DNA of 64,000 nt, taken from positions 416,001 to 480,000 of the forward strand of contig JBDRCX010000006.1 in assembly GCA_043821365.1 (NCBI GenBank), written 5' to 3'. Position 1 is the stretch's first letter. Every line of letters starts with the position of its first letter. Below are positions 2,046 to 36,762 of this stretch, in pieces. This DNA is from Candidatus Micrarchaeota archaeon (lineage in GTDB: Archaea > Micrarchaeota > Micrarchaeia > Anstonellales > Bilamarchaeaceae). A program made the translations under genes and the position numbers. Below the pieces are notes generated by a model, which had not been told where the DNA came from, did no database searches, and was given only the letters and a program-made list of their open reading frames with translations.

Positions 2046-3086
2046 TCAATCCTTTATTTTCTTCCTGAATTTAATATAGGTTGCATAATCAATGTACTTT
2101 TTGTTATTAATGTAATCCTTTGTTTTCGGAGCTTTGTCTCTTACTTCATCAATTTTGTCAGTGACCATGATGGCAAACGAATCGCTTCCTGCCCCTGACC
2201 CATATGAAGTAACTAAAATTCTATCTCCTGGTTTTGCTTCATCCAAAACAGCAGAAAGACCTAGCATTGACGCTCCTGAATAAGTATTGCCAATTAAAGG
2301 CGTAAGCAATCCAGTCTTCAATTTTTCTATTGGGATGTCAAATCTTTTCCCTGCTTCAAGTGGAAATCTTCCGTTTGGCTGGTGAAACACTACATGATCA
2401 TAATCTGTCATCTTTGTTCCTGTTTTTTCTAGAAGTCCGTTTGTCGCAGCAATAACATGCTTGAAATAAGCTGGTTTCCCAGTAAATCTTCCACCATGAG
2501 TTGGATAATCTGCGTGTTGTCTTCTCCAGAAATCTGGTGTATCAGTTGTAAATGAAAAAGTTGATTCTATTATGGCAACTGACTCTTTTTTTGGACCAAC
2601 AATAAATGCAGCACCGCCAGAAGCTGCAGAATATTCCAAAGCATCTCCTGGTCTTCCCTGTGCAGTATCAGCTCCTATTGCCATACCATATTGTATCATT
2701 TCAGAGTCTACCATTCCACATACTATCTGCAATCCAGCAGTTCCTGCTTTACATGCAAATTCAAGGTCTGCAGTTGTAAGATTAGGTGTTGCTCCGATGG
2801 CTTCAGCAACAATGGTACCAGTTGGTTTTACTGCATATGGATGCGATTCGCTTCCAACATACAATGCACCTAATTTTTTTGGTTCTATTTCAGCTCGTAA
2901 TATTGCATTTCTTGCAGCTTCAACTGATATTGTTGTGGTGTCCTCATCAACACCTCCAACTGCTTTTTCAATAATTCCAAGGCCCTTTTCTATTCTATTA
3001 GTTTCTTCTCCCCATACCTTTGCTATATCCCCACTTTTAATTCTGTAAACTGGAATATAAGAACCATATCCAACAATGCCTGCCAT
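2046..3086 (-). CDS. hmgS: Archaeal hydroxymethylglutaryl-CoA synthase
   Basis: [15 protein letters not shown] (catalytic Cys), [21 protein letters not shown]. Stop codon lies 2 nt before the tRNA-Arg 5' end. Confidence 0.95.
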
Positions 3087-3115
3087 GAATTTTCACCTCT
3101 AATTAGTATGTTTTT

Positions 3116-3850
3116 TTATTTTTTAACGCTTCTCTTTTTTTTCGTTTCAGTTGGCTTTCTCTTTTTCGATGAAATCATAAATAAATATGCAACTACTAAT
3201 AACACTATAATACCAAGAATAGCAATCAAATACCCATAGTTAATTTCCTTACTCACAACTACAACTGGTTGCGATCCTTTCATAGCCTCTACAACATCAA
3301 AAGTGACTGTTGACCCTTGGGCAGTTCCTATTGAGGCACTGTCTATCTCTGATGGCATTTCAACTGTGTATGTAATATTAACTTTAAGGACTTCAAGTGT
3401 TGTAACTAAATTTTGGTTAGTTTCTTGATCTCTTAGATTGATTGGATTTGGATTATCATTACTTGCATTTGCCTCTCCAATTGCTACTAATATTGATTCT
3501 AATTTTTGACTAAATACGTTTGTTGGTATCCTCTCTATCTCCAAAATATATGTCGTGTGGGGCACTCCATAATCAGCAGAAAATCCATAATAAATTCCAG
3601 AAGAAAATTTTTCAGTTATTGTGACTGTTTTTTTGTCAACATCAACACTACAATCAATATCCATAGTGTTATCACAATATTGTTTCATATTAGTAAATGC
3701 ATTTTTGCTTAATTGCCCTGAAAAAATAGATATGTCCATTGTTTTCTCGATTGTTGCAGCTCCATTTCTGTTCATATCATGTGTATAACTCTGATCAAAA
3801 GAAGCAAATACAATGGAAAAAATCATTAAAGCAAAAATCAATCTTTTCAT
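3116..3850 (-). CDS. Secreted, membrane-anchored surface protein
   Basis: N-terminal signal peptide (MKRLIFALMIFSIVFA), C-terminal TM helix and basic tail. Confidence 0.75.
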   Translation of the reverse strand: MKRLIFALMIFSIVFASFDQSYTHDMNRNGAATIEKTMDISIFSGQLSKNAFTNMKQYCDNTMDIDCSVDVDKKTVTITEKFSSGIYYGFSADYGVPHTTYILEIERIPTNVFSQKLESILVAIGEANASNDNPNPINLRDQETNQNLVTTLEVLKVNITYTVEMPSEIDSASIGTAQGSTVTFDVVEAMKGSQPVVVVSKEINYGYLIAILGIIVLLVVAYLFMISSKKRKPTETKKKRSVKK

Positions 3851-19210: not shown

Positions 19211-21409
19211 TCAAAAACCATCAATCAAAATTCGTGGAGGTTTCTCAGCTCTAATCCCTATGCTTTCTCCCCATTTTCCAATGTCTTCATTTGGATTTGT
19301 TTCTCTCCATCTATAAAGTGCCATTGCACTTAAAGTTAAAGTAAGATTTTGAGGATCAACTCTTATTTTCTGTGCATTACCAAGCCCAAGTTTTTCTTGT
19401 AATTTGGCGATATCTCCTCCAAGTCTGGTGCTGCCACCAACTCTTTCATTTAAAAATTCCTGAACTGCTTTTGCATATACTCTTAATGTTCTGCTATTTG
19501 TTTCATCTGTCATCTGTGTAATTTCTCCTCGTTTAGTGAAACTTCTATATTTTACTAACATAAATCTTTTGAATTCAGGATCTGCACAAAGTTCGTTGAA
19601 AGAACCTGCAAATGCTTTTTTATTATCTTGTGCAGATACAGTCTCTCTCATTTCAATTATTCTTGCAGGATTTCTTGCTGTAATTGCAGCTATCATCTCA
19701 TCTGCTTTTGTTTGCACTGGTTCTTCCATTCTTTCTAGTGGAATTTCTATTCTTGGTCTTCTATCTGCTATTCCAAATGCAACTTGTGCTATTTGTCTTG
19801 CTATTTCTTCTTTTCCTGCTTTGTTTGGGTGTAAATGGTCTCCTGAATCAAATTCAGGTTTTAATCTTCTTCCCTGAGCAAGAATTGAAAGATCAATAAC
19901 AGTTACTCCATCCTCTCTTTTGGCCAAAAGCCATTTGTTATATTCATCTGTTTTTTGTTGATTTCTTTGCGACCATGTTCCATAACCTTCCCATGGTGTA
20001 ACAGTAAGAAGTACTACTCTCAGTCCTGCGCCTTTTGCCATTGCTATCATTTCATCAATGTTTCCTTGTATTTCGTTTAGTGGCCTACCACCAGCAATAT
20101 CATTTACTACCCCACCCTGTATGACGACTGTGTATCCCTTGTCTATTATGTCTCTTTTAAATCTTCTTTTCATTTGATAAGTTCCTTCTCCGGAATGCGC
20201 AGTTGTTTCAACTACTGCATCAGAAGTTTGCGATCGTAATAATTTTTGTAGTTCTTTACCAAGTATTCCATCTGCTGCAGATGAACTTCCTATTATGCCA
20301 ACATAAACTGCTGGTCTTCTTGGTGATGGTTGTGCTTCTTCGATGGCAACTGGTGTTCTCCAGATTGGTATATCATCTGATCTTTTTGCTCTTCCACTTG
20401 TTGGGTGAGTGAGGTACCATCTTCTCATATGCAGTTGTGCAGCCATTATAGTATCACTATCAATTGGTCTTTCCATTGCTGTTTTTCTTGCCAGCGGTCT
20501 TGCTTCTATTATTGCTCTTACCTTTTCCAATTGGGTTATCTCTTGTCTATAGTTCTGATCCATCCCACCGAAATTTGTCAAGTAATATCTAATATACAAA
20601 TCAGCAGCTTGCAATATTTTTGCATCTGTTCTTTTGTCTATTCTTTTTCCAGATTCAATATGTTGTAATAAATTCCCAAGCTCTGGGTGAGTCTCTGCTT
20701 CCTGTGCTGCTGCAGTTGTCAAATAAAGTTCAAATGCAGGTATTTTTCTCAATTCACTAAAAAGTGCTACAGTTATTTCTTTTTGCGCTGTTGTTCTTGC
20801 TGTTCCTCTTTGTCCTTTTGCCAAGACTTTGTCAATAGCTGTTCTGTTTGTAAATAAAGTAGTTGTTGCTGTTTCTCTATCTGATGAAGTTATTTGTTTT
20901 AATATAAATCTTTGATTGATTGTTGGGCCTCTTATTCTAGTTCGTGAACTTGCTGTTCTCACAGGTTCAGCTCGCCTTTCTGGTTCTGTTCTAGTTGGCT
21001 GGGCGTCTTCTATAACTGGTTCTATTCTTACAGGTGGTTTGTCCCGTACCTCTGGTTCTACTCTAGGTACTGAACGTTCCTCGATAGGTGGGGTAAATAC
21101 TCTTGGTTCTACTCTTACTGGCTTATCTTCTGGTACTACAACTGGCTCTGTTCTCACAGGTTCAGCTACTTTTATTTGTGCTTTAAGTTGTTGTGCTAAT
21201 GTTGTTGTTGCTCTTATTGCAACTATTTCTGATTTTTTATCAGAGTCACTTGAATATGCTTTGAAAGCCTCTCCTAATACTCTGCTTATTTTTGCTTTTA
21301 CTGCATCATCGCTTTCTTCCCTAGTTATTCTTGTTGATGATGTGTAAACTGTACCATCAGAAAATTTTATTATTATGGCATTAGTCCCATTCAATCTAGC
21401 TGTTGCCAT
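19211..21409 (-). CDS. 732-aa protein with Pro/Glu/Arg-rich linker and SGNH/GDSL hydrolase domain
   Basis: IIGSSSA (block I), HSGEG (II), GGVVND (III), DHLHP (V). Confidence 0.8.
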   Translation of the reverse strand: MATARLNGTNAIIIKFSDGTVYTSSTRITREESDDAVKAKISRVLGEAFKAYSSDSDKKSEIVAIRATTTLAQQLKAQIKVAEPVRTEPVVVPEDKPVRVEPRVFTPPIEERSVPRVEPEVRDKPPVRIEPVIEDAQPTRTEPERRAEPVRTASSRTRIRGPTINQRFILKQITSSDRETATTTLFTNRTAIDKVLAKGQRGTARTTAQKEITVALFSELRKIPAFELYLTTAAAQEAETHPELGNLLQHIESGKRIDKRTDAKILQAADLYIRYYLTNFGGMDQNYRQEITQLEKVRAIIEARPLARKTAMERPIDSDTIMAAQLHMRRWYLTHPTSGRAKRSDDIPIWRTPVAIEEAQPSPRRPAVYVGIIGSSSAADGILGKELQKLLRSQTSDAVVETTAHSGEGTYQMKRRFKRDIIDKGYTVVIQGGVVNDIAGGRPLNEIQGNIDEMIAMAKGAGLRVVLLTVTPWEGYGTWSQRNQQKTDEYNKWLLAKREDGVTVIDLSILAQGRRLKPEFDSGDHLHPNKAGKEEIARQIAQVAFGIADRRPRIEIPLERMEEPVQTKADEMIAAITARNPARIIEMRETVSAQDNKKAFAGSFNELCADPEFKRFMLVKYRSFTKRGEITQMTDETNSRTLRVYAKAVQEFLNERVGGSTRLGGDIAKLQEKLGLGNAQKIRVDPQNLTLTLSAMALYRWRETNPNEDIGKWGESIGIRAEKPPRILIDGF

Positions 21410-21413
21410 CTTA

Positions 21414-24400
21414 TCACTCCGCTCTCTGTCCTGCTCTTCTTGCAGCTGCTTTTATTCTACTTCCTAAAAATGCTGGAGACTTATCTTCATCCAATGTTAT
21501 CGTTAATTGTCCACCTTCAGCAAATGTGAGTTTTATTCCACCTCTTTCATAAAGTTGTTTATCCTGTGAAACTGTTTTTGCCCTCAATATCTCAGCATAA
21601 ATCTCCCTTGTAATTTCTCTAGTTGCATGTGCTAATGCGTCTGCATCTGAAACTCCAGGTGCTTTGTATCTCTGGATTAATGCAGCTATGTCTGGGTCTG
21701 CCTTTTGTCTTTCTGTTGAAGCTTCAATATCTTGTGCAATTTTAAGTCCTTCCATACTGTCCATGAAGCCTGTTAGTTCTTGATCACTTACTGTTGAGAC
21801 GTCTGTTCTTGGAGCTGCAGTTCTTACTGGTGTTAATGTTGCCCATTTTGGATAATGTCTTCTGAGTTCTTCCTCATCTCTTACTTGCTGGCTTGGTTTC
21901 TGTCCGCTTTGTTGTGCTCTATGTCTTCTAGCTGCTTCTGGAGTTCTTGGCACTCTCTCATTTGCCCTCATCAATTTTCTACTTTCAAACTGTCCCATTA
22001 AACTATCTAAATATGTTGTAAGTGCCTGTTGTTCTGTTGGAAGGCTGGATTTATTCAGTTCCAAATATCTGAGTACAGCAACTAAATTTATTCCATATCC
22101 AATATCTCTCTTCCCTTCAATCCAAGTCATGATCAAAGGATTTTTCTGAGCAAATGTTAACAGATCCCTGTGTTCAAGAATTTGTGGATCAATGTCACCG
22201 TAAGATGCTCGTAATATCCAACCTTCTCGTTGTGCTTCTGCCTTGAGGTTAAATGGAGGCAATTTTCCTCTTTCTCTTTCTGGTGTTCCATCAAATAATT
22301 GTTTTCTCTCTCTTGTTTTTGTTACAATCCACGTTGCAAATTCTGTAAGGTCACCATAAACTGCTTCGTTTGCATCAAGTGTTAAACTATCAAGAGCTCT
22401 TAGGGCATCTGGGTCACCTTTATAGAGTGTTAAGATTTCTCTTACTGTTGTTTCTAATGCAGGGTTTCTAGTCATTGCTTCTCTATCCAAATATCCAAGA
22501 ATAGCATTGTGTGACAATCCCCTTGTTTGCCCTTCTTGTTCTTCAGGTATTTCCAAAACCCAACCTTTTTCTCTTAAGAATACGTACATTCCTTCTTCTA
22601 AGGTTTGTTCGCCTTGCAATCCTGTTCTTATTCCAGCTATTACTCCTGGTTTTGATAATTCTATTATTGCATCTCTTGAATATACTACTGGTAGACTTCC
22701 GTTATGTACTAAATTCCAAAGAGCAACAAATGCATCCCTATCTTGATTTAGGAACATGTGGACTTTGTCACTGAATGCTCCTTCTGCGGTTGCACTAGTT
22801 GATAAACTTAAAAGGAATGATGCTTGCGTAACATCTCTTGGTGGTTTTTTACCACCTGAGGCCATCTCATTAAGTGATAGAAATTCTTCAACAACTACTG
22901 AAAGTTTTTTCTCATCAATTTCTGCTTTTAATCTTAGTCTTTCTATCACACCAGTTCCAGCCAACATGCTAGCTGCCATTTGTGCATTTCCGTATGGTAC
23001 TTTTCCACTTTTCATTAATGTCCACAATACATCGTAGACATCGGCATTTTGTGTGAAAACTTCAAACTCTCTTTGATGGTCAGTTACTCCACAATCATAA
23101 AGAAAGGAGCTTACTATTGCACTGCCAAAAGTGAAAGCATATCCTTTGTCAACCCAATCCCCTGTTTTTCTTAAGTCAACAAGATCCATCATCTCTAAAT
23201 CAATTCCAGTATCTCGTTTCTTTATTCTTGCTCTTCCTATAAGTTGATCATAGCTTATTCCCCATGGTTCTATTATTGCTCTTAGTTTTCCTTCATATTT
23301 TCTATCAGGATCATCGTTGCCATTTATTCTTGTAACATAATCATTTATGTCATCTATTTGTCCTGACATCTCTCTAACATCATCTAACACTCTGTCAACC
23401 ATGGCAGGGTGTATATACCCTCCCTCTCGTTGCATTGCTTCTTCTAAGTTTTGTGGTCTGCGTTCATCTCCTTTTGGATAAATATATGGGAGCATGTCTA
23501 CGAACATTCTAACATTTGGGTCTTTGATTATTGCCTTTGCATTGTCTTCTGATATGTCAACATCGAATTTTTCTTTTATCAGTCTTCTTCCTTCTGTAAT
23601 GGATTTTGTTTGGAATAAGCATTCTGATATTGTACCATAGGTCCATTCTATTGGCCCCTGCTCTGGATCACCTGTGATCTTTCTACCCCACCAATATTCC
23701 ATAAGTGCTACATCTGCTGCCCATAAGCCAAATTGAGCTACAACTAATGCTGTTCCCCATGCACGTTTTGACCCTTCAACTAATTCTCCTGATCGTATTG
23801 CATCTTCTCTGATTGCCATTCCTCTACGTCTGAGGGGACCCAATCTTCCTCCTCTGCCCCAACCTCTTACTGGTAAAATGTAATCTAATGCACTTATCAA
23901 TCCTGTTGGAACTCTTCCTTTGGCCCAATGCCAAGCATCAACACCTGCTGATCCATACTCTGGCACTGCTACTTCAGGGTTACTTCTATAATTTGTTAAT
24001 GCTTCAGCATATTTTCCTAGTGCATTAAAGTTGTCGCTAAATCCTCTCACTTCAGTTGCAAAATCAGCCAATTCACTGTCAATTCCTCTTATTTCTTCTA
24101 TTGCTTGTTCTACTTTTGTTCTTTGTTGTCTTGGATTTTTACTATTCCACTCTTCCAATGCTAGGTCAAGTTTTGCATCTGATAGTGCTTCCCTGTATGC
24201 TGCTTCTTTACGTCCTAGTGCTTCCATCACTGGTTCGCTTTTTAAAACACCAAGCAATATTTCATCTGCATTTCCACCTCTAGCAACTCTTTCAAGCACT
24301 CTTTGTTGTGCAACTTGTGCAGCTTGTGAATCTGCAGATAAATCTGCTATTGTTCTTTCAGTGTAGTATTGAAGTCCTCTTGCTTCTCCTTCAATAATAG

Positions 24401-27400
24401 GCTCTCTCATTTTTCCTTCAGTCAATAATCTTGCAAACATTTCTGCTTTTGCTGTTTCTCCAAATCTAGTTGCCAACATTCCTTCAGTTGCAACTAGTGG
24501 TTGGTTTCTAGCATCTTGTATCTGTTGAGTTGCTTCGTATATTGTTCTTTCTGCTCCTTCTAATCTTGTGTTATACCCTTCCAAAGTTTTCAATGGCTTT
24601 CTTATTGCTTTATCCCATGCAGTTCTTGCAGTTCCTAATGGAGCCACATCAATTCCTTGAGATCCAAGAGTTCCAAGATCTTCATGTACAGAACCCAATT
24701 CTCTCTGGATTCTTTGTAATGATTCTCCAATTCTTTGTGTTGTTCTAAGTAATTCTCTTGGACTTGTTCTTTGTAAGTTTGTCTCTCTTAAAAATGCAAT
24801 CTCATCTACCACAGTTCCAAGTCTTTCTTGTATATATCCTAGACTTGCATCAAGTGCTTCTATTCTTGCTATCTGGTTTGTTAGTTCTGCTGCACGGGGG
24901 TTTGTTGCATCCAATCCTCTAAGTTCTGTTCGCAATACCTCGATTTCACCATAGCTTTCACGCTCAGCTGTTAATGCACCATGCTGTTCAATTGCTGTTT
25001 CTACTGCTTTATCTGCCCCTCTCAAGTAACTTTCTCTTGGTGATGTTTCTGCACGTGCGAGTTTTGGTCTTAGTGTTTCTATCTGCCCCTCAACTTCCAC
25101 TCTTGTTCTTTGTGCACTAGCTTCTGCTGCTCGTGCTTGTTCAACCATCCTAATTACTGGGGCTTCTAATGTATCTAAAATAAGGCCAGTTTCTGTTTCT
25201 GTAAATAGTTTTCCTTCCTCTCTAACTCCTAATCTCCTATAATGTTCTTCCAATGTTGTTCCTGTTCTTCTTATTGTTTCTGCTGCAGTACCTTCTGAGC
25301 TTCTTATTGCTCTTTGAATGTCAACATTTCCTTCTGCTGCTTCTCTAAGTACGTTTCTAACATTCTCTCTAGCATACATCTTTTGCATGATTCTTGCCAA
25401 TTCTGTTCTTAAAGCTGATGGAACATCTCTGCTTGTTGATCTTTCGTAAAGTGTCCTGAATAATTCAACTACTCTCAAATTTGCTAGTTCAACTGCTTGT
25501 GCATCGGTAATATCCATTGTAACTCTTTCTGCAGATGGTCTGGCAGTGTCAAGTATTCTTTCAAGCCCCATGCTTGCTTCAGTTGCAAAATCTTGTGGTG
25601 CAGTTACTCCTTCTCTTGCTCTTACTTCTGCTTCTACTGCTCTTGCACTTCTTCCTTCTCTATAACCTCTATATGAATCAAGAACTCGTCCTGGCACATT
25701 CAACCTACTTCTTCCACCAGTTGGTGGTCTTACTTGGCCTCCACCATCTACAGGGCCTCCGCCTCCCGGTGGATCAGTACTTGCTCTTATTTGTGTTCTT
25801 GTAACTCCTTCTATTGGAGCTCCTCGTTCACCCATAGTCGGAGGCCTTCCCATCATTTGTATTGGTTCTCCACCAACTACTTGTAATTCATAAACTTCCA
25901 TTGCCTGAACTTCAACTTGTAAAATTTCTTTTGGAACAACTGCTTCCAAATCTGTAAGTGCTTTTCTAAATGCAGCTTCAGATGCAGGATTTAATCCTCT
26001 ATCATATGATAATCTTACAAAATCATTACTTACAAGTCTATCAACTATTCTTGCAACTTCTGGATTTTGCGATCGTATTTGTTCCAATCTTGCTGTTGCA
26101 AGTGCTTCTCCATGAACAAGGTCACCAACAAAATCACGTAGTGTAACTCCTCTTGTTGCAAGCCAATTTGCTGCTTCATATAATGGTCCTGTATTTCTTG
26201 GACCTGGTGTTGTCGGAGGTGGTCTTTCAAATCCTCTTATTGCTGCTCTCATTGCTTCTTCTGCTTGTAAAAATGTTACTGATGTGTCTGGTGCGCGAAG
26301 TGCTTCTGTCATTGCAGGATTTCTTGCTAAATCACCAAGAACAGTTCTAGCATGTTCTGGTATTCTAGCCATCATGCTTTCTTTTACAATTGGGTCAGCT
26401 CTTGTGTATGCTCTTAAAAATTCCAATAATTTTGCCGGGCTTCTTAACTCAGCAACTCTTGCAGCTTCAGGAACCCTTGTTGGTTCAATTTCAATTGCAG
26501 GTCTTTCTATTGCTGGTGCAAGTTCTTCTACAACTGCCTCAAGATCCACTGCTTTTGCTCTTGCAGTTTCAGCACTTCTTACTCTTGCTGCTCTATATCG
26601 TGCACCTCCCATATGCGCCCACGGGAAAAGTGCAACCATTCCAGTAAATACTGCTTCTTTGTACTGTCCACTTTGCCATGCTCTATAGGATTCATATCCC
26701 ATATACCCAGTCATTCCAATTCCAATTCCAACATTGGCCATAGTTATTGCTCTTGCTCTTCCTAACATTCTTGTTGCAGTGGCAAGCTGACCAAGTCTCT
26801 CTGCTTCTACTGCTCCTCTTCCAAGAGAACCAACCCAACTTCCAAGACCAACAGTTACAACTGTCAGTCCCATCATAGCCCAACTTGTTGCTGATACTGC
26901 TCCTTCAACATGGTATTCAGTATAAGCATGATCTGCCTGCTGTGCAAGTATCATCGGAATTCCAATTTCTGGTTGGAGTACTGTTACCCCTAATGCAACA
27001 ACTGTATAAGCTGCATTTCCTGCAAATCCAATTATCCCTGACCATTTTTCCATTTGTTCTACTATTACTTTAGCCTCTGCTAATTTTTGTTCTCCTAAAT
27101 CACTTTGTCCTGTTCTGTATGCTCCTGCAGCACTTAAACACGCCTCTCTTACTTGATCTTGCCTTCCTGCATAATCTTGATTAGCTATGCTTTGACTAGT
27201 GTTTCTTGCTGGAATGCTGAACATAGCTATATCTATCATTCTTGCTGCCTCAAGTCTCTTACCATGCATTTTTATTCTGTCAGTTCTTCCTGGAGTTTCA
27301 TCTCCAAATAATATTTCCCTCAGTGCCTGTTTGTGGATTAATAAATATTTGACATACTGATCATCTCTTCCAGCTACTATCTCTCTTCTTCTATCATTTA

Positions 27401-30931: not shown

Positions 30932-31252
30932 TTAGGAATACATTTTACAAATAAATACAAAATCCCGCAATCTTCGTGTGCGGGTTTCGTCATCAACGTT
31001 TTTTGTTTCAGTTACGTTTTTTTGCCATGATTCTAATGCATGACAAAATCTTCTTATCCTAACAACGTGGGGGTACATTGCATCAGGTTTTGTTTTTGAT
31101 GCATCCCACTTTGTGAGAAAATATTCAAGAGTAGAAATAGTTTTTTCAACACGTCTAATTGTTTCCTGTTCAACAGATGTAACGTCTGTTTTCTTTGGTA
31201 TACTAACAACCTTTTTTGGTTTAGCCTTAATGGCAGTTTTTTTCTTCGCCAT
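30932..31252 (-). CDS. Small basic helical hypothetical protein (~106 aa)
   Basis: GGGTG RBS before MAKKK; TTTATAAA TATA-like box upstream. Confidence 0.7.
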   Translation of the reverse strand: MAKKKTAIKAKPKKVVSIPKKTDVTSVEQETIRRVEKTISTLEYFLTKWDASKTKPDAMYPHVVRIRRFCHALESWQKNVTETKNVDDETRTRRLRDFVFICKMYS

Positions 31253-31361: not shown

Positions 31362-34300
31362 TTAGTTTGTTTGTTTTACAAATCTCAAAACTTCACGACC
31401 AAGTATTATTGGTGCTTTGTCATCATCTACTTGTACTTCCAAACCACTTTCAGTTGTTGTCACTGTTAATCCATTTGCTTTTAAGTAAGCACTTTGTGTT
31501 GAGTTTGTTGTTGCCCTTGTAAGTCTTGTAAACCAGTCTGCTCTGATTGCCTGCATGAATTGCTCCTTATCGCCGCCATACTTCGAAACAAGAACTTCCT
31601 GTACCGTTGCACCGTTTGGTCCAGATGCATCAAAGAGTTTTTGGACTGCTTCATCTAATCTTGCACCAAATATGCTGTTCTGGAAAAATGTTTGGCCTTC
31701 TGCGCTAAGTACTTCAGTAGTCACCACACTCTGAGCAGTCGGTTCGCTTATTTGTACTATTAACCCAGTTCCTTTTGCCCATTCCACTCTTGATCCTTGT
31801 GGATATCCAAATGGATCGTAATCGCCTAACTGCCCTCCGTCTCTTTTATGTTGAACTAACAATTGAACAAATTCATCTGATCTTTCAACATTAAGTCTGT
31901 ATGGTGATGCAGTTTGTTTGAATCCTAGGAGGAATTCTTTTACATCAGTTTGTACTACACAAACATCCAATGAAGCTTCGTGGAGTCCTAATCCACTAAG
32001 TTCTTTTTCAACTGTGTGCCTTTGGAATTCAACTGTGGTATTTCTTACCCAATCTGCTTGGGTACCCCGTAGTGTCTGTGTCATTGCTTCATCAAATATA
32101 TCTTGTGGAACTTCTTCCATCACAGGATTTATTACAACTGCAGGTGTTCTTGCACCTGCAACTCTTACGATGTTGTCTCTTAGCATACTAAGGAAACTGT
32201 CTCTATGTTCTTCTTCAACATGGTATTTAGCTTCCCCAACTTTACCCATAGCAAGTCTTATTTCTGATGTTTGTTTTCCTTGAGACAATAAAAATTGTAC
32301 ATTGTTAAGATCAGTCACTCTGCTTGTTTCCATTATCTGGAATTCAAGTTCACTTATCAAGAATCCTTCTCTCACCCAACGTGCTCTGTTTACTTGATCA
32401 TTCAAATATTCATAGCTTATTGTTTTGCCATCTTGTTCTTCTGCCATTAATCTTGCAACAAATTGGTCTGATCTACCAGTGTTCAATCGTAATCCATCAC
32501 TTATTGCATTATAATCAAGTTCAATTGTACAACAAACTTGCATACCTGGTTTCCATTTATCTGCTTCAACTGGCTGATATGCTTCTACATCCTCAACTGT
32601 TTTTATCCCGAGTTTGCCACAACTTGCAGGAAGTGGAGTTGCACTTGTGCTGCAATTCACTGGTCTTTCGTCAAGTTTCTTTACTTCAGCAACAACTTTC
32701 ATTGTTTTACGTTCTTGCATGAATGTCAAAACATCTTGATTTGTTGCAAGCCATCTTAATCTTGCTTCAACTCCAGTGCTATCTGCTTCGCCCTGAAGTG
32801 TTTTTCCAATTCCATATGCTCTTTTGTAATATTCTGAACCTCTTTCTGTTAATCTACCTGGAATATCATAACTGTCATGTATAACCCTTCTAATTTCTTT
32901 TTCTGTTGCCAATGGCAATCCCCAAGTCCATGGTCTGTACCAATCTTTGCTTTGAGTATAAACAGGACCTCCAAATGCCTGCACAATTGGTGCTGGCCAG
33001 GTTAATGGGTTAAGTAATTTTACTTCTTGTGCTCCAAGAGTAAAACTTAATGCACCAGTAGCCAATATACCCTTTACTACTAATCCAGCAACTCCTCTTG
33101 ACCATCTTGGCCATACTGTTGGGTAATATGATCCTTGTCCTTGATCTGTATAATCTCTTGCCATCACTTTTCCTTTTGGATTTTCAGTAAGATGTTCTAA
33201 TTCAGTTCCAAAACTATGGTTCCACAACCATCTTCCTTTTGCTCTCCATCCTCTTCCGCTTATTGTATGATAGGCAAGTTTATGTTTGAACTTTGCCCAA
33301 CCACCTTCTCCTCTTGCTGGAATGCTATCTATATCTGATGCAGCTTCCCAGACTCTTACTGCTTCCAAACGCTGTGCATCTGATAAACCAACTATTGTTT
33401 CGTAATTTCTTCTTTCCATTCTCTCAACAACAAGCAAAGCAGCCCGTCTTAATGGGAATGCGTGGTTGTTTTTTGTTTCAGTTAGTTGAGCATCTATAAA
33501 TTCTCGAGTAATATCAAAATTTCTTAATGCAGTAGCCATTCTTCTGAATCTTGTTCTTGTTGCTTCTGGCAGATTTGTACGATCCACCTCTCTTTCAAAA
33601 GCATCTAGTTTTCCATTGAATTCATCCACCCTATCCTGCAACAAAGGTGCATAATCTACTCGTACTGGGGTAGGTGCGATAGGTTGGCCTTGAATTTGTT
33701 GTTGTGGTGCAGGTGTTCTCAAATATTGTACCATCTCTTCTCTTTCAGTTAGAAGTTCCTGTACTCTATCAAGATGCGCAGTAACTGCAACATTTGGTAA
33801 TCGTTCTGCTATTCTATCTGCAACCCCTCTAAGGTCAGCACCACTTTCGCGGTGTTCTATAAGTAAAGCACGAAAATGATCAATTAACTGTCTTGAAACC
33901 GCATCTGTGCTTCCTTCCAAACTAAATCTTCTCAATTCAGCTTGTGCTTCTCTTAGTTCACCCTCTGCCATTTGTAATTGTTCTCTTGCCACTGTTTCAT
34001 CAGCACTTGCTTCTCTTAGTTCTGTTATGTGGTGGTGAATATGATCATCCCTTATTCTTGCAGTACCATTAATTTGTGCTTGGAGATCTGAATATCTTTG
34101 CCTTGCCTCATTCAATTCTCTTCTAGATTCTCGTTTTTCTTGTTCAGTACTACGTTCATTTCCTTGGATTTGAGAATCCCTTCTTTCTGTCTGTTGCAAT
34201 TCTCTTCTTACAGTATCAACATAATCACCAATTTCTCTTTCAGCAGTTTCTCTTCGTTCTGCTGCCATTCTTATTGTGTCGCCTAGGTCTCCTATGACTT

Positions 34301-35186
34301 CATGTAGTGTTCGAACTGCCAAACTTCTTTCTTCTAGTCCTCTATCTGCGTGTTCACTATATCCAAAACCAGGCATGTTCAATGTTGGGTTATTTGCATT
34401 TGTTGGTGTACTAAGAATATCATTTACCAATGTGCCAAAATCATTAACAGCTCTTTCAAGTGGTTCAGCTGATCTTCTGTATAAATAGGTTGCTGCATAT
34501 GAAGGATCCAAAATACTTCCTCCTGCTCTTTCTTTTGAATCAGTAAATGTTTTTCTTGTTGAAAATTCCTTTAGCACCATTCCTATAAATTCCCCTTCTC
34601 TCCCAGGATGTTTATGTTGTGCAACACTTTCCAAAAATCTCAGAAATGCTTCTGACGGATTTGTCTGTCCTTCTGGCCATCCATCCCATATTTGTGGGCA
34701 TCTTACCATTGTTGAATGTAAAATATCTAGATCAAGTGTGGTCAGATTCCCTATCATATGCCTTCTATTACTTCTTGCAATGTTCAATTGTGCTGCTAAT
34801 TCTACTCTTCTTCTCTGTACATCAATTGCATGGGTACTATCACTTTCTTCCAGAGGAGTTCTTACTGCTCCATGTTCTATTGCCTGTACAAATTGTTCAC
34901 TACAAATAATTTCTCTGATTAACATGTCAAGTGTTCCAGTTACATCTCTTCTGCTTTGTCCCCTTCTAATTGCTTCTACAAATGCTTTGTTAAAACTAGA
35001 ACTATGATCTCCACTTGCTGTTCTTGCGTCTGGTGTTTCTCCTGCTCTCTGCCTTGCTCTTTCAATTGCTTCAGTTTCCTCTGCTCTCTGCCTTAATTTT
35101 CTCTGTCTCTTTGCTTCTGTTGGTATCAATGGAACGTAACTCTTTACCCCTTCCCATCCTCTACTTGCTAATGTACTTCCAGCCAT
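31362..35186 (-). CDS. Large protein (~1274 aa): coiled coil, TM helix, internal repeats, C-terminal module shared with the 3134-aa protein
   Basis: Start moved to MAGSTL after AGGTGGG RBS; TM GVAGLVVKGILATGALSFTLG. Confidence 0.88.
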   Translation of the reverse strand: MAGSTLASRGWEGVKSYVPLIPTEAKRQRKLRQRAEETEAIERARQRAGETPDARTASGDHSSSFNKAFVEAIRRGQSRRDVTGTLDMLIREIICSEQFVQAIEHGAVRTPLEESDSTHAIDVQRRRVELAAQLNIARSNRRHMIGNLTTLDLDILHSTMVRCPQIWDGWPEGQTNPSEAFLRFLESVAQHKHPGREGEFIGMVLKEFSTRKTFTDSKERAGGSILDPSYAATYLYRRSAEPLERAVNDFGTLVNDILSTPTNANNPTLNMPGFGYSEHADRGLEERSLAVRTLHEVIGDLGDTIRMAAERRETAEREIGDYVDTVRRELQQTERRDSQIQGNERSTEQEKRESRRELNEARQRYSDLQAQINGTARIRDDHIHHHITELREASADETVAREQLQMAEGELREAQAELRRFSLEGSTDAVSRQLIDHFRALLIEHRESGADLRGVADRIAERLPNVAVTAHLDRVQELLTEREEMVQYLRTPAPQQQIQGQPIAPTPVRVDYAPLLQDRVDEFNGKLDAFEREVDRTNLPEATRTRFRRMATALRNFDITREFIDAQLTETKNNHAFPLRRAALLVVERMERRNYETIVGLSDAQRLEAVRVWEAASDIDSIPARGEGGWAKFKHKLAYHTISGRGWRAKGRWLWNHSFGTELEHLTENPKGKVMARDYTDQGQGSYYPTVWPRWSRGVAGLVVKGILATGALSFTLGAQEVKLLNPLTWPAPIVQAFGGPVYTQSKDWYRPWTWGLPLATEKEIRRVIHDSYDIPGRLTERGSEYYKRAYGIGKTLQGEADSTGVEARLRWLATNQDVLTFMQERKTMKVVAEVKKLDERPVNCSTSATPLPASCGKLGIKTVEDVEAYQPVEADKWKPGMQVCCTIELDYNAISDGLRLNTGRSDQFVARLMAEEQDGKTISYEYLNDQVNRARWVREGFLISELEFQIMETSRVTDLNNVQFLLSQGKQTSEIRLAMGKVGEAKYHVEEEHRDSFLSMLRDNIVRVAGARTPAVVINPVMEEVPQDIFDEAMTQTLRGTQADWVRNTTVEFQRHTVEKELSGLGLHEASLDVCVVQTDVKEFLLGFKQTASPYRLNVERSDEFVQLLVQHKRDGGQLGDYDPFGYPQGSRVEWAKGTGLIVQISEPTAQSVVTTEVLSAEGQTFFQNSIFGARLDEAVQKLFDASGPNGATVQEVLVSKYGGDKEQFMQAIRADWFTRLTRATTNSTQSAYLKANGLTVTTTESGLEVQVDDDKAPIILGREVLRFVKQTN

Positions 35187-35309
35187 AATCCCACCTACTT
35201 CTAATAATTTTTCTATCGTTATTGTGTCTAATAGTGTTTTTAAAAGTATCACTGTGTTTATGGAGGTTGTGCTTTAGATAATATATTATACATATGCCAC
35301 ATGATAAAA

Positions 35310-36671
35310 TTAGCCAACTATATTCCCAACAATTTTTTCAGGAATAAATCTTTCCAAATCTTCATATTTCTGTCCAATTCCAACATAAATTATTGGTATC
35401 CCTGTTGCTTTATTTATTGAAAGCATTGTTCCGCCTTTTGGATCACAATCTAATTTTGTCAATATGACTGCATCAATTCCTATTTCTTTATTAAAAGTAG
35501 ATATTTGATCTATTATTGCATTTCCAGCTATGCTTTCACCTATATAAATCTTCAAATCAGGCTGAATTACTCTGGTCATTTTTTTTACTTCATTTATCAA
35601 ACTGATATTTGTATCCTGTCTTCCTGCGGTGTCTATTAGAACTGCATCTATCGCGTGTGCTTTTGCATAATTCACCGCATCGTATGCAACTGAAGTCGGA
35701 TCGCTTCCATACTCTCTTTTTATTATTTTTACTCCAAGACGATCTGCATGGATAGACATCTGTTCAATTGCTGCTGCCCTAAAAGTATCTGCTGCTGCAA
35801 ACACAACTTTTTGTTTGTTGTCCATCAAAAGTTTTGCAACCTTTGCTATTGTTGTTGTTTTTCCAGCCCCATTAATTCCAATAAGCATTATTTTTACTGG
35901 TTTGTCTGAACTTTGCATTTTTTCTAAAATGTCAAAGTCTTTATCATTTGTTAAAATTTCAATTAGAATTTGCTTTATTGAATCACTGACAAATGATTGG
36001 AGTTTGTTTTTTGGTATCTTTGCACCTACGATTTTTTCAGTTAATTCGTTTTTTATACTCTCTGCAACTCCAATATCAACATCTGCTTCAAGCAATTCCA
36101 ATTCAAATTCTTCAAGCATTTGTTTTACATCTGATTCACTTATTTCAACTTCTCTAGTTATTATGCTTTTTACTGTGCTTACTATGCCCAGCTTGATCCT
36201 TTCCTTTGGTTTTTCCTCTTTTTTTGGCAATTCGATTGTTTTTTCCTGGACTTTGGGTTGCTCAATTTTATGAGGTTTTGGTTCGTCTATTATTTCTATT
36301 TTTTGTTCTGGTTTTATCTCAGGTTTTTTTTCTTTTGGTTCAATTTTTTCATTTATCGGTTCTCTTTGAATTATTTTTTTGACTGGCTTTTCTTCGATTT
36401 TTGAAATTGGTTTTTCTCCTACTTTATCTGGTGGTTTCTCTTCAATTTTTTTAGAAATAGGTTTCTCTTTTTTTTCTACAGTTGCTTTTATTGGCTCTTT
36501 TTTCTTTTCAACTGGTTTTTCAATTTGTTTCTTTGGTTTAACTCGTTGTTCTTCAGTTTTTAGTTCTTTTTCAATTTTCTCTTCTGGTGGTTTTTCCTCT
36601 ATTTCATCTTCTTTCTTTTTGGTAAGGCCATCGATAAAGCCACCAATTTTCTTTTTAAGAAAATCAAACAC
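35310..36671 (-). CDS. ftsY: Signal recognition particle receptor FtsY
   Basis: GINGAGKTTT, DTFRAAA, DTAGR, TKLD, KGG. GTG start (MFDFLKKK) after GGTG; long K/E/P-rich N-terminal region. Confidence 0.97.
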   Translation of the reverse strand: MFDFLKKKIGGFIDGLTKKKEDEIEEKPPEEKIEKELKTEEQRVKPKKQIEKPVEKKKEPIKATVEKKEKPISKKIEEKPPDKVGEKPISKIEEKPVKKIIQREPINEKIEPKEKKPEIKPEQKIEIIDEPKPHKIEQPKVQEKTIELPKKEEKPKERIKLGIVSTVKSIITREVEISESDVKQMLEEFELELLEADVDIGVAESIKNELTEKIVGAKIPKNKLQSFVSDSIKQILIEILTNDKDFDILEKMQSSDKPVKIMLIGINGAGKTTTIAKVAKLLMDNKQKVVFAAADTFRAAAIEQMSIHADRLGVKIIKREYGSDPTSVAYDAVNYAKAHAIDAVLIDTAGRQDTNISLINEVKKMTRVIQPDLKIYIGESIAGNAIIDQISTFNKEIGIDAVILTKLDCDPKGGTMLSINKATGIPIIYVGIGQKYEDLERFIPEKIVGNIVG

Positions 36672-36689
36672 AAAAACACCACGAAAAAA

Positions 36690-36762
36690 GGACCGGCAGA
36701 AACAACGTTTCTGTGGTCCAGAAAAAAGCATTGCTTTTTTCTAGGAGATTCGAAAAGAATCT
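36690..36762. repeat. Cluster of three hairpins between pfdA and ftsY
   Basis: GGACCGGCAGAAAC-AAC-GTTTCTGTGGTCC; AGAAAAAAGC-ATT-GCTTTTTTCT; AGATTC-GAAAA-GAATCT. Confidence 0.6.

Follow-up and report, generated by a model that had tools for sequence, protein, structure and literature searches.

A C-terminal domain common to two giant proteins in a Micrarchaeota gene cluster

Two giant proteins in one gene cluster

The window analysed here is a 64,000-nucleotide stretch of DNA from a Candidatus Micrarchaeota archaeon (G000:C6:416001-480000, where G000 labels the source genome, 1.2 Mb in size and 87% complete). It holds a gene cluster that encodes two giant proteins, S and G, each of which ends in a domain of about 110 residues, here termed the C-terminal domain (CTD), that is the subject of this report. 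The closest named relative is the groundwater Micrarchaeote 'Candidatus Bilamarchaeum dharawalense' LFW-283_2, of the order Anstonellales, with which the ftsY neighbour shares 71% identity (PMC8561730).

The cluster is read from the (-) strand, on which all features of the window named below lie. The ftsY gene (35310-36731) stands next to gene S (P0002; 31362..35252), which encodes 1296 residues if read from the GTG at position 35252. Translation likely starts at the ATG at 35186 (MAGSTL...), giving a protein of 1274 residues, the length adopted in an earlier note on this DNA. A conserved gene for a 106-residue protein (30932..31252) lies between S and G, as it does in those relatives that were inspected. 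Gene G (P0001; 21414..30818, with the coding part ending at 21417 and the stop codon at 21414-21416) encodes 3134 residues. It is followed by a gene for an SGNH/GDSL hydrolase-like protein (P0004; 19211..21409), assigned by its match to Pfam PF13472 (E = 1.1e-17) and by synteny, and the last gene of the cluster encodes a secreted, beta-rich protein of 1624 residues with an N-terminal hydrophobic export segment (P0003; 14222..19096).

Of the 24 other genomes in the genus, 17 have an ortholog of S and 13 have one of G. Relatives within the genus repeat the series from ftsY through S, the small gene and G to the hydrolase, where the gene after the hydrolase has at least its N-terminal 75-190 residues in common with the beta-rich protein. 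The cluster includes some of the largest genes in this 1.2-Mb genome. Neither S and G nor the beta-rich protein match a known family; no Pfam or NCBIfam family rises above noise for S or G, and we did not find S, G or the other cluster proteins described in the literature.

The 106-residue protein is basic and helical and belongs to a multi-copy family with two to ten copies per genome in the genus. A second copy in the source genome lies outside the window (G000:C6:546919-547230 (-)), directly upstream of a giant open reading frame of 4461 residues (G000:C6:533576-546958) that is devoid of the CTD, and in genome G050 a copy sits between two G paralogs. The small protein and a giant gene look like a recurrent pair, in which the former is perhaps a chaperone or a regulator.

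A homologous domain at the C-termini of S and G

The earlier note had proposed, from the sequence of the window, that S and G share a C-terminal architecture and a terminal motif that might form a sorting or assembly domain. The strings it quoted are all present where it placed them. The terminal motif (residues 3093-3119 of G, nucleotides 21462-21542; residues 1260-1285 of S, nucleotides 31398-31475) proves to be the β-hairpin of a larger homologous domain, which spans residues 3011-3128 of G (21435..21788) and residues 1182-1294 of S (31371..31709). The evidence from the window pair by itself is marginal: BLASTP of S against G returns a single matching stretch, the terminal one, at E = 0.005 with the whole proteins and 3e-4 with the C-terminal halves.

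The homology becomes decisive with profiles built from orthologs. For each family we built a hidden Markov model (HMM) from the last 90 residues, leaving out the window's own proteins and the other family. The S-family HMM finds the extreme C-termini of the G family with E values of 4e-20 to 3e-13, and the G-family HMM finds those of the S family with E values of 3e-17 to 1e-9. The window's proteins are the most divergent pair in these small cross-family searches (E = 0.008 for G and 1.4e-4 for S), and both are matched at the correct positions. Comparison of the two families with hhalign, which the earlier note had put forward as a check, bears this out: the first family alignments give a probability of 96.7% (E = 4e-10), and alignments of 44 S and 24 G domains give 99.8% (E = 1e-29), equating S 1182-1294 with G 3011-3128. 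An alignment designated A1, in which the window's S and G are both included, carries the signature ..E.YR.LT...R..GxTVxGxG..xV....A...L..I..F, and its profile matches these two domains with E values of 4.3e-28 (S) and 1.7e-18 (G). At the level of sequence comparison, S and G have exactly one demonstrably homologous part, the CTD of about 110 residues.

An AlphaFold model of S 1177-1296, computed from a 24-sequence alignment, has a mean predicted local distance difference test score (pLDDT) of 93.9 and a predicted template modeling score of 0.85. The chain is predicted to fold into five helices followed by a β-hairpin, formed by S 1262-1267 and 1270-1275, and to close with one more helix. In a model of the 557 residues S 740-1296 (pLDDT 87.5), the pLDDT drops below 50 over a few residues just before the CTD, which points to a separate unit on a linker; this flexible linker, residues 1172-1179 of S (31716..31739), runs between two confidently predicted parts.

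Neither sequence nor fold ties the CTD to a known family. No Pfam or NCBIfam family matches it apart from a stray match of one of the 24 aligned domains to DUF3106 (E = 0.006); none of the curated profiles of dockerin, SLH and other named surface-anchoring families matches S, G or any of the 24 aligned domains; and a sequence profile search of the PDB yields nothing below E = 0.25. Searches with the predicted fold stay at background level, with best E values of 0.34 (Foldseek against the PDB) and 0.047 (BFVD), and VIA-align against 48,161 chains gives a best Z of 5.1 (72 residues superposed at a root-mean-square deviation of 3.4), a value typical of noise. The 557-residue region of S likewise returns noise-level rows, the best being winged-helix-like (Z 5.2-5.5, model residues 241-328).

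The alignments of the CTD contain no invariant or nearly invariant column, and the mean column identity is 22-25%. Conserved positions are mostly hydrophobic, with the addition of an arginine and of glycines around the hairpin. The lack of conserved polar residues argues that the CTD is not an enzyme, and the pattern as a whole fits a binding module. This bears on the idea that the CTD is the toxic tip of a polymorphic-toxin-like protein, with the 106-residue gene after S encoding its immunity protein. A giant protein followed by a small conserved gene would suit such a system, as would the multiple copies of the small gene (2-10 per genome) and its weak, below-cutoff Pfam match to Tox-REase-7 (E = 0.0056). 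The CTD, however, has no conserved polar or catalytic residues, G adjoins the hydrolase gene downstream rather than the small gene, the second small-gene copy precedes a giant gene that has no CTD, and the CTD also occurs inside the beta-rich protein of some relatives (see below). We consider a toxin hardly credible.

Beyond the CTD, the wider C-terminal architecture is a resemblance of layout, and homology is not demonstrable from the sequences. In both proteins a long helical N-terminal part leads to a basic stretch rich in Trp and Arg, a hydrophobic segment, a variable region and finally the CTD; in a comparison of full-length S and G profiles, the CTD alone is significant. The W/R-rich stretches, read from the sequence, comprise residues 650-677 of S (33222..33305) and residues 2296-2325 of G (23844..23933), the latter kept in close relatives only. 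Both are followed by a hydrophobic segment, as had been observed, but the profiles of this region are not significantly similar (P = 0.05, probability 1%). The proposed pairing of HRDLLTFAQ with NQDVLTFMQ finds no support (hhalign probability 1%), and that of ITEGRR... with ATEKEI... is not recovered by hhalign.

What hhalign does pair with NQDVLTFMQ is DPNVRMFVD, within a colinear match of 33 columns between S 805-847 (32712..32840) and G 2410-2442 (23493..23591). Three runs recover this match at one position, with probabilities of 59% (E = 9e-5), 16% (E = 1.6e-3) and below 1% (the full-length run, not significant), and hence depends on the alignment; it is suggestive of a short motif common to both sequences after the hydrophobic segment. 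Recurring colinear matches between S 930-985 and G 2525-2584 are weak, reaching P values of only 0.02-0.03.

Just ahead of its CTD, S carries a pair of duplicated domains (31719..32564) of about 95-100 residues each, repA (residues 897-998) and repB (residues 1085-1178). Their mutual similarity is weak: the repB HMM finds repA with an independent E value of 7e-6, the reverse search also works, and both lie at the same places across the S family; neither HMM has a match in G. Four cysteines of S (residues 867, 878, 907 and 908; 32529-32654 (-)) form a C-x10-C-x28-CC pattern after the hydrophobic segment that is present in 11-12 of 13-15 S-family members and suggests disulfides or a metal site.

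The N-terminus of the SGNH-like protein was considered as a further copy of the end of the CTD and rejected, as neither the HMM nor hhalign gives a significant match (probability 0.8%). Its first ~60 residues (21230-21409 (-)) form a strand-turn-strand and a helix in all orthologs inspected, followed by a linker rich in Pro, Arg and Glu.

Carriers, likely exchange and probable location of the domain

A six-frame HMM search of the source genome finds the CTD on S and G only. The further carriers that the earlier note had proposed to look for exist within the genus, where 29 of 39 genomes contain the domain, mostly in two copies and sometimes in three. They do not extend far beyond it: the other genera of the GTDB family contribute one weak match among 59 genomes from 22 genera, and the other families of the order none among 77 genomes from 11 families. 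The CTD profile finds 83 matches in 1.84 billion representative proteins; short fragments aside, nearly all of these are S-like (repA-repB-CTD) or G-like (2300-2950 residues). The CTD is a new, previously undescribed and genus-restricted domain family, although its functional kind, a terminal module common to components of one surface system, is familiar.

The S-like architecture sometimes ends in two CTDs, and tandem copies are found in P0006, P0042, P0048 and P0055. A third class of carriers consists of P0063 and P0085, full-length orthologs of the beta-rich protein (27-31% identical) with one or two internal copies of the CTD. The beta-rich genes of genomes G018 (G018:C10:8772-11834 (+)) and G053 also have internal CTD-like inserts, and one insert in these orthologs sits where the window's protein has a short remnant. 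At G050:C2:8689-26941, S is followed by two G-like giants of 2827 and 2913 residues, each ending in a CTD. The ten partial matches in P0078, a bacterial cadherin-like repeat protein, were discarded as a false positive of the profile.

In a tree of 77 CTDs, the copies from S and G are intermixed. Eight switches between S and G are needed to explain the tree, of which at least four to five are forced by well-supported branches; the G domains of genomes G004 and G007, for example, nest inside a clade of S domains that includes G004's own S. Within-genome identity between the two CTDs is raised in some lineages (for instance 39% compared with about 20%), and a permutation test gives p = 0.0002, a value driven by the near-identical genomes G014 and G002, so that this similarity is a hint only. 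We read the tree as evidence, though not as a reconstruction, that the CTD sequence has been exchanged between S and G genes more than once.

Two readings of the CTD as a module facing outward are touched by these patterns. In the first, the CTD would be a surface-exposed binding tip, the outermost part of two stalk-like proteins and of beta-rich loops, that binds an external ligand such as the surface of a partner cell. Its position on a flexible linker at the terminus most distant from the hydrophobic segment, its fast divergence (the low column identity given above) and its confinement to one lineage speak for this, as does the presence of cell-attached symbionts among the Micrarchaeota (PMC8975820). 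The Anstonellales are, however, reported to be metabolically rich and possibly less host-dependent (PMC12892359), the exchange between S and G fits partners that need to match each other at least as well, and the structure searches return no adhesin-like fold. We regard a binding tip as unlikely.

In the second, the CTD would bind the cell's own S-layer or glycan and fix several cluster proteins to one layer, like bacterial SLH domains. The presence of the same small domain on membrane-anchored proteins and in the secreted beta-rich protein would be expected of such an anchor, as would tandem copies. Envelope anchors such as SLH and LysM are usually common to many surface proteins; here, the two or three carriers per genome all belong to one cluster, other surface proteins have no CTD, and no SLH or other wall-binding family is matched. 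With the fast divergence and the exchange between S and G also speaking against it, an envelope anchor appears distinctly unlikely.

S and G have hydrophilic N-termini without a Sec signal, in agreement with the earlier observation that neither sequence begins with a signal peptide. The single hydrophobic segment of S (residues 721-739; 33036..33092; Kyte-Doolittle 1.75) is probably a signal-anchor membrane helix. In 14 of 15 S-family members, the upstream flank contains 3-8 Lys and Arg residues versus 0-3 downstream, a bias that by the positive-inside rule would place the N-terminus of S inside and its C-terminus outside. G contains four hydrophobic, Gly-rich helices (residues 1262-1401; 26616-27035) that are conserved in all orthologs covering the region. 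The charges of their loops, as read from the sequence, alternate as expected for four membrane passes, which would return the chain to the cytoplasm. A later segment with an Arg-rich upstream flank (residues 2355-2373; 23700..23756; Kyte-Doolittle 1.49) is a possible but uncertain fifth membrane helix, and this Arg-rich stretch and segment would take the last 760 residues outside. We infer that in both S and G the C-terminal region is on the outer side of the cytoplasmic membrane. The beta-rich protein lends this independent support: some of its orthologs contain the CTD, and P0003 and P0085 both have an N-terminal hydrophobic export segment, which indicates that in these proteins the domain works outside the cytoplasm.

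A proposed docking role and comparison with known systems

We propose, at a probability of roughly 45%, that the CTD serves on the outside of the cell membrane as a docking module linking the proteins of the cluster. S and G would be membrane-anchored giants in which the internal hydrophobic segment behind the Arg/Lys-rich stretch acts as a signal anchor. The CTD would attach either to other CTDs or to a single site common to its binding partners in the cluster, and S and G would thereby be kept together with the beta-rich protein in a joint assembly. This proposal draws on the autonomous nature of the domain on its linker, its restriction to one cluster, its tandem and inserted copies, and its exchange between S and G. 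Because it occurs only in this gene cluster, the CTD looks like a cluster-specific docking module and not like a tag that general sorting machinery would recognize.

Several observations weigh against this proposal. The window's own beta-rich protein has no intact CTD and retains a short remnant at about residues 1268-1330. The membrane topology rests on the charge-bias rule and on moderately hydrophobic segments, and the Kyte-Doolittle value of the G segment is only 0.66-1.5 in orthologs. Downstream of the hydrophobic segment there is no enrichment of N-glycosylation sequons (observed/expected ratios of 0.67-0.77 after it and 1.12-1.25 before it), which lends the topology no support in an organism that may or may not glycosylate its proteins. 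The CTD tree is based on 124 columns and has long branches, and within-genome similarity between the S and G domains is not raised in the window's own clade.

One particular arrangement can be pictured as a 'handshake', in which the CTD would join two giants anchored in the cytoplasmic membrane to a secreted protein with a predicted outer-membrane-type barrel at its end. The CTD copies in orthologs of the barrel protein would then provide the matching socket, and the cluster would encode one apparatus reaching across the envelope or into a second membrane, either the cell's own or that of a partner cell. We consider this arrangement rather unlikely. A lineage-restricted domain without an assigned function would by itself be of moderate interest, and the value of the CTD rises with the question of a barrel-like protein in an archaeon. 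It is the first concrete link among three proteins of the cluster, which argues for their joint action outside the cytoplasm, and as a small, well-folding unit of 110 residues it offers a handle for experiments on the apparatus.

Of the two functions suggested in the earlier note, assembly remains the best reading, while sorting does not hold up. The latter had been raised by analogy with the C-terminal domain of the bacterial type IX secretion system (T9SS) of Bacteroidota (Por_Secre_tail, TIGR04183 / PF18962), which likewise forms the very C-terminus of large surface proteins and is conserved over roughly 70-110 residues. T9SS cargo carries an N-terminal Sec signal in addition to this beta-sandwich domain; a genome encodes tens of such proteins, and a dedicated machine recognizes the domain. 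The CTD of S and G differs in all four features compared, from the profile and the fold to the N-terminal signal and the number of carriers: TIGR04183 has no match in the whole genome at E <= 1 and no such Pfam family is matched by S, G or the 24 aligned domains; the six predicted helices and single β-hairpin do not make a beta-sandwich; the Sec signal is missing; and the genome encodes two carriers.

A sorting or secretion signal could also be recognized, and perhaps removed, by an export machine of the archaeosortase kind, and the position of the CTD at the extreme C-terminus of two proteins that have no N-terminal signal peptide would agree with either version. Archaeosortase A (TIGR04125) has no match in the genome at E <= 1, an absence that is not proven at 87% completeness. 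Archaeosortase substrates (PGF-CTERM and its kin) end in a motif, a membrane helix and a basic tail; S and G instead end in a soluble amphipathic helix, with neither a terminal hydrophobic helix nor a basic tail. Internal and tandem copies of the CTD also speak against a signal, which we judge very improbable in either form.

Other known systems can be compared with the CTD. SLH domains, known from S-layer proteins and from the OmpM/SlpA tethers, resemble it as small helical modules common to surface proteins and to proteins with a terminal beta-barrel. They are widespread, however, occur in sets of three and attach to wall polymers, and S, G and the 24 aligned domains contain no SLH match. 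The docking domains of modular synthetases, such as that of a rhabdopeptide nonribosomal peptide synthetase (PDB 6ewt), are short modules at the ends of giant proteins with adjacent genes, where they join one protein to the next. This entry ranks seventh in the Foldseek search at noise level (E = 0.7 over 48 columns), and such domains act in the cytoplasm between enzymes.

For how the CTD may work, the closest analogy is with the dockerin-cohesin pairs of cellulosomes, in which a large protein is plugged into an assembly through a small domain that often sits on a linker at the C-terminus. Dockerins consist of duplicated calcium-binding loop-helix repeats, are carried by many enzymes and bind a distinct partner, the cohesin. 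The CTD matches dockerins in neither sequence nor fold, and its putative partner may be the CTD itself.

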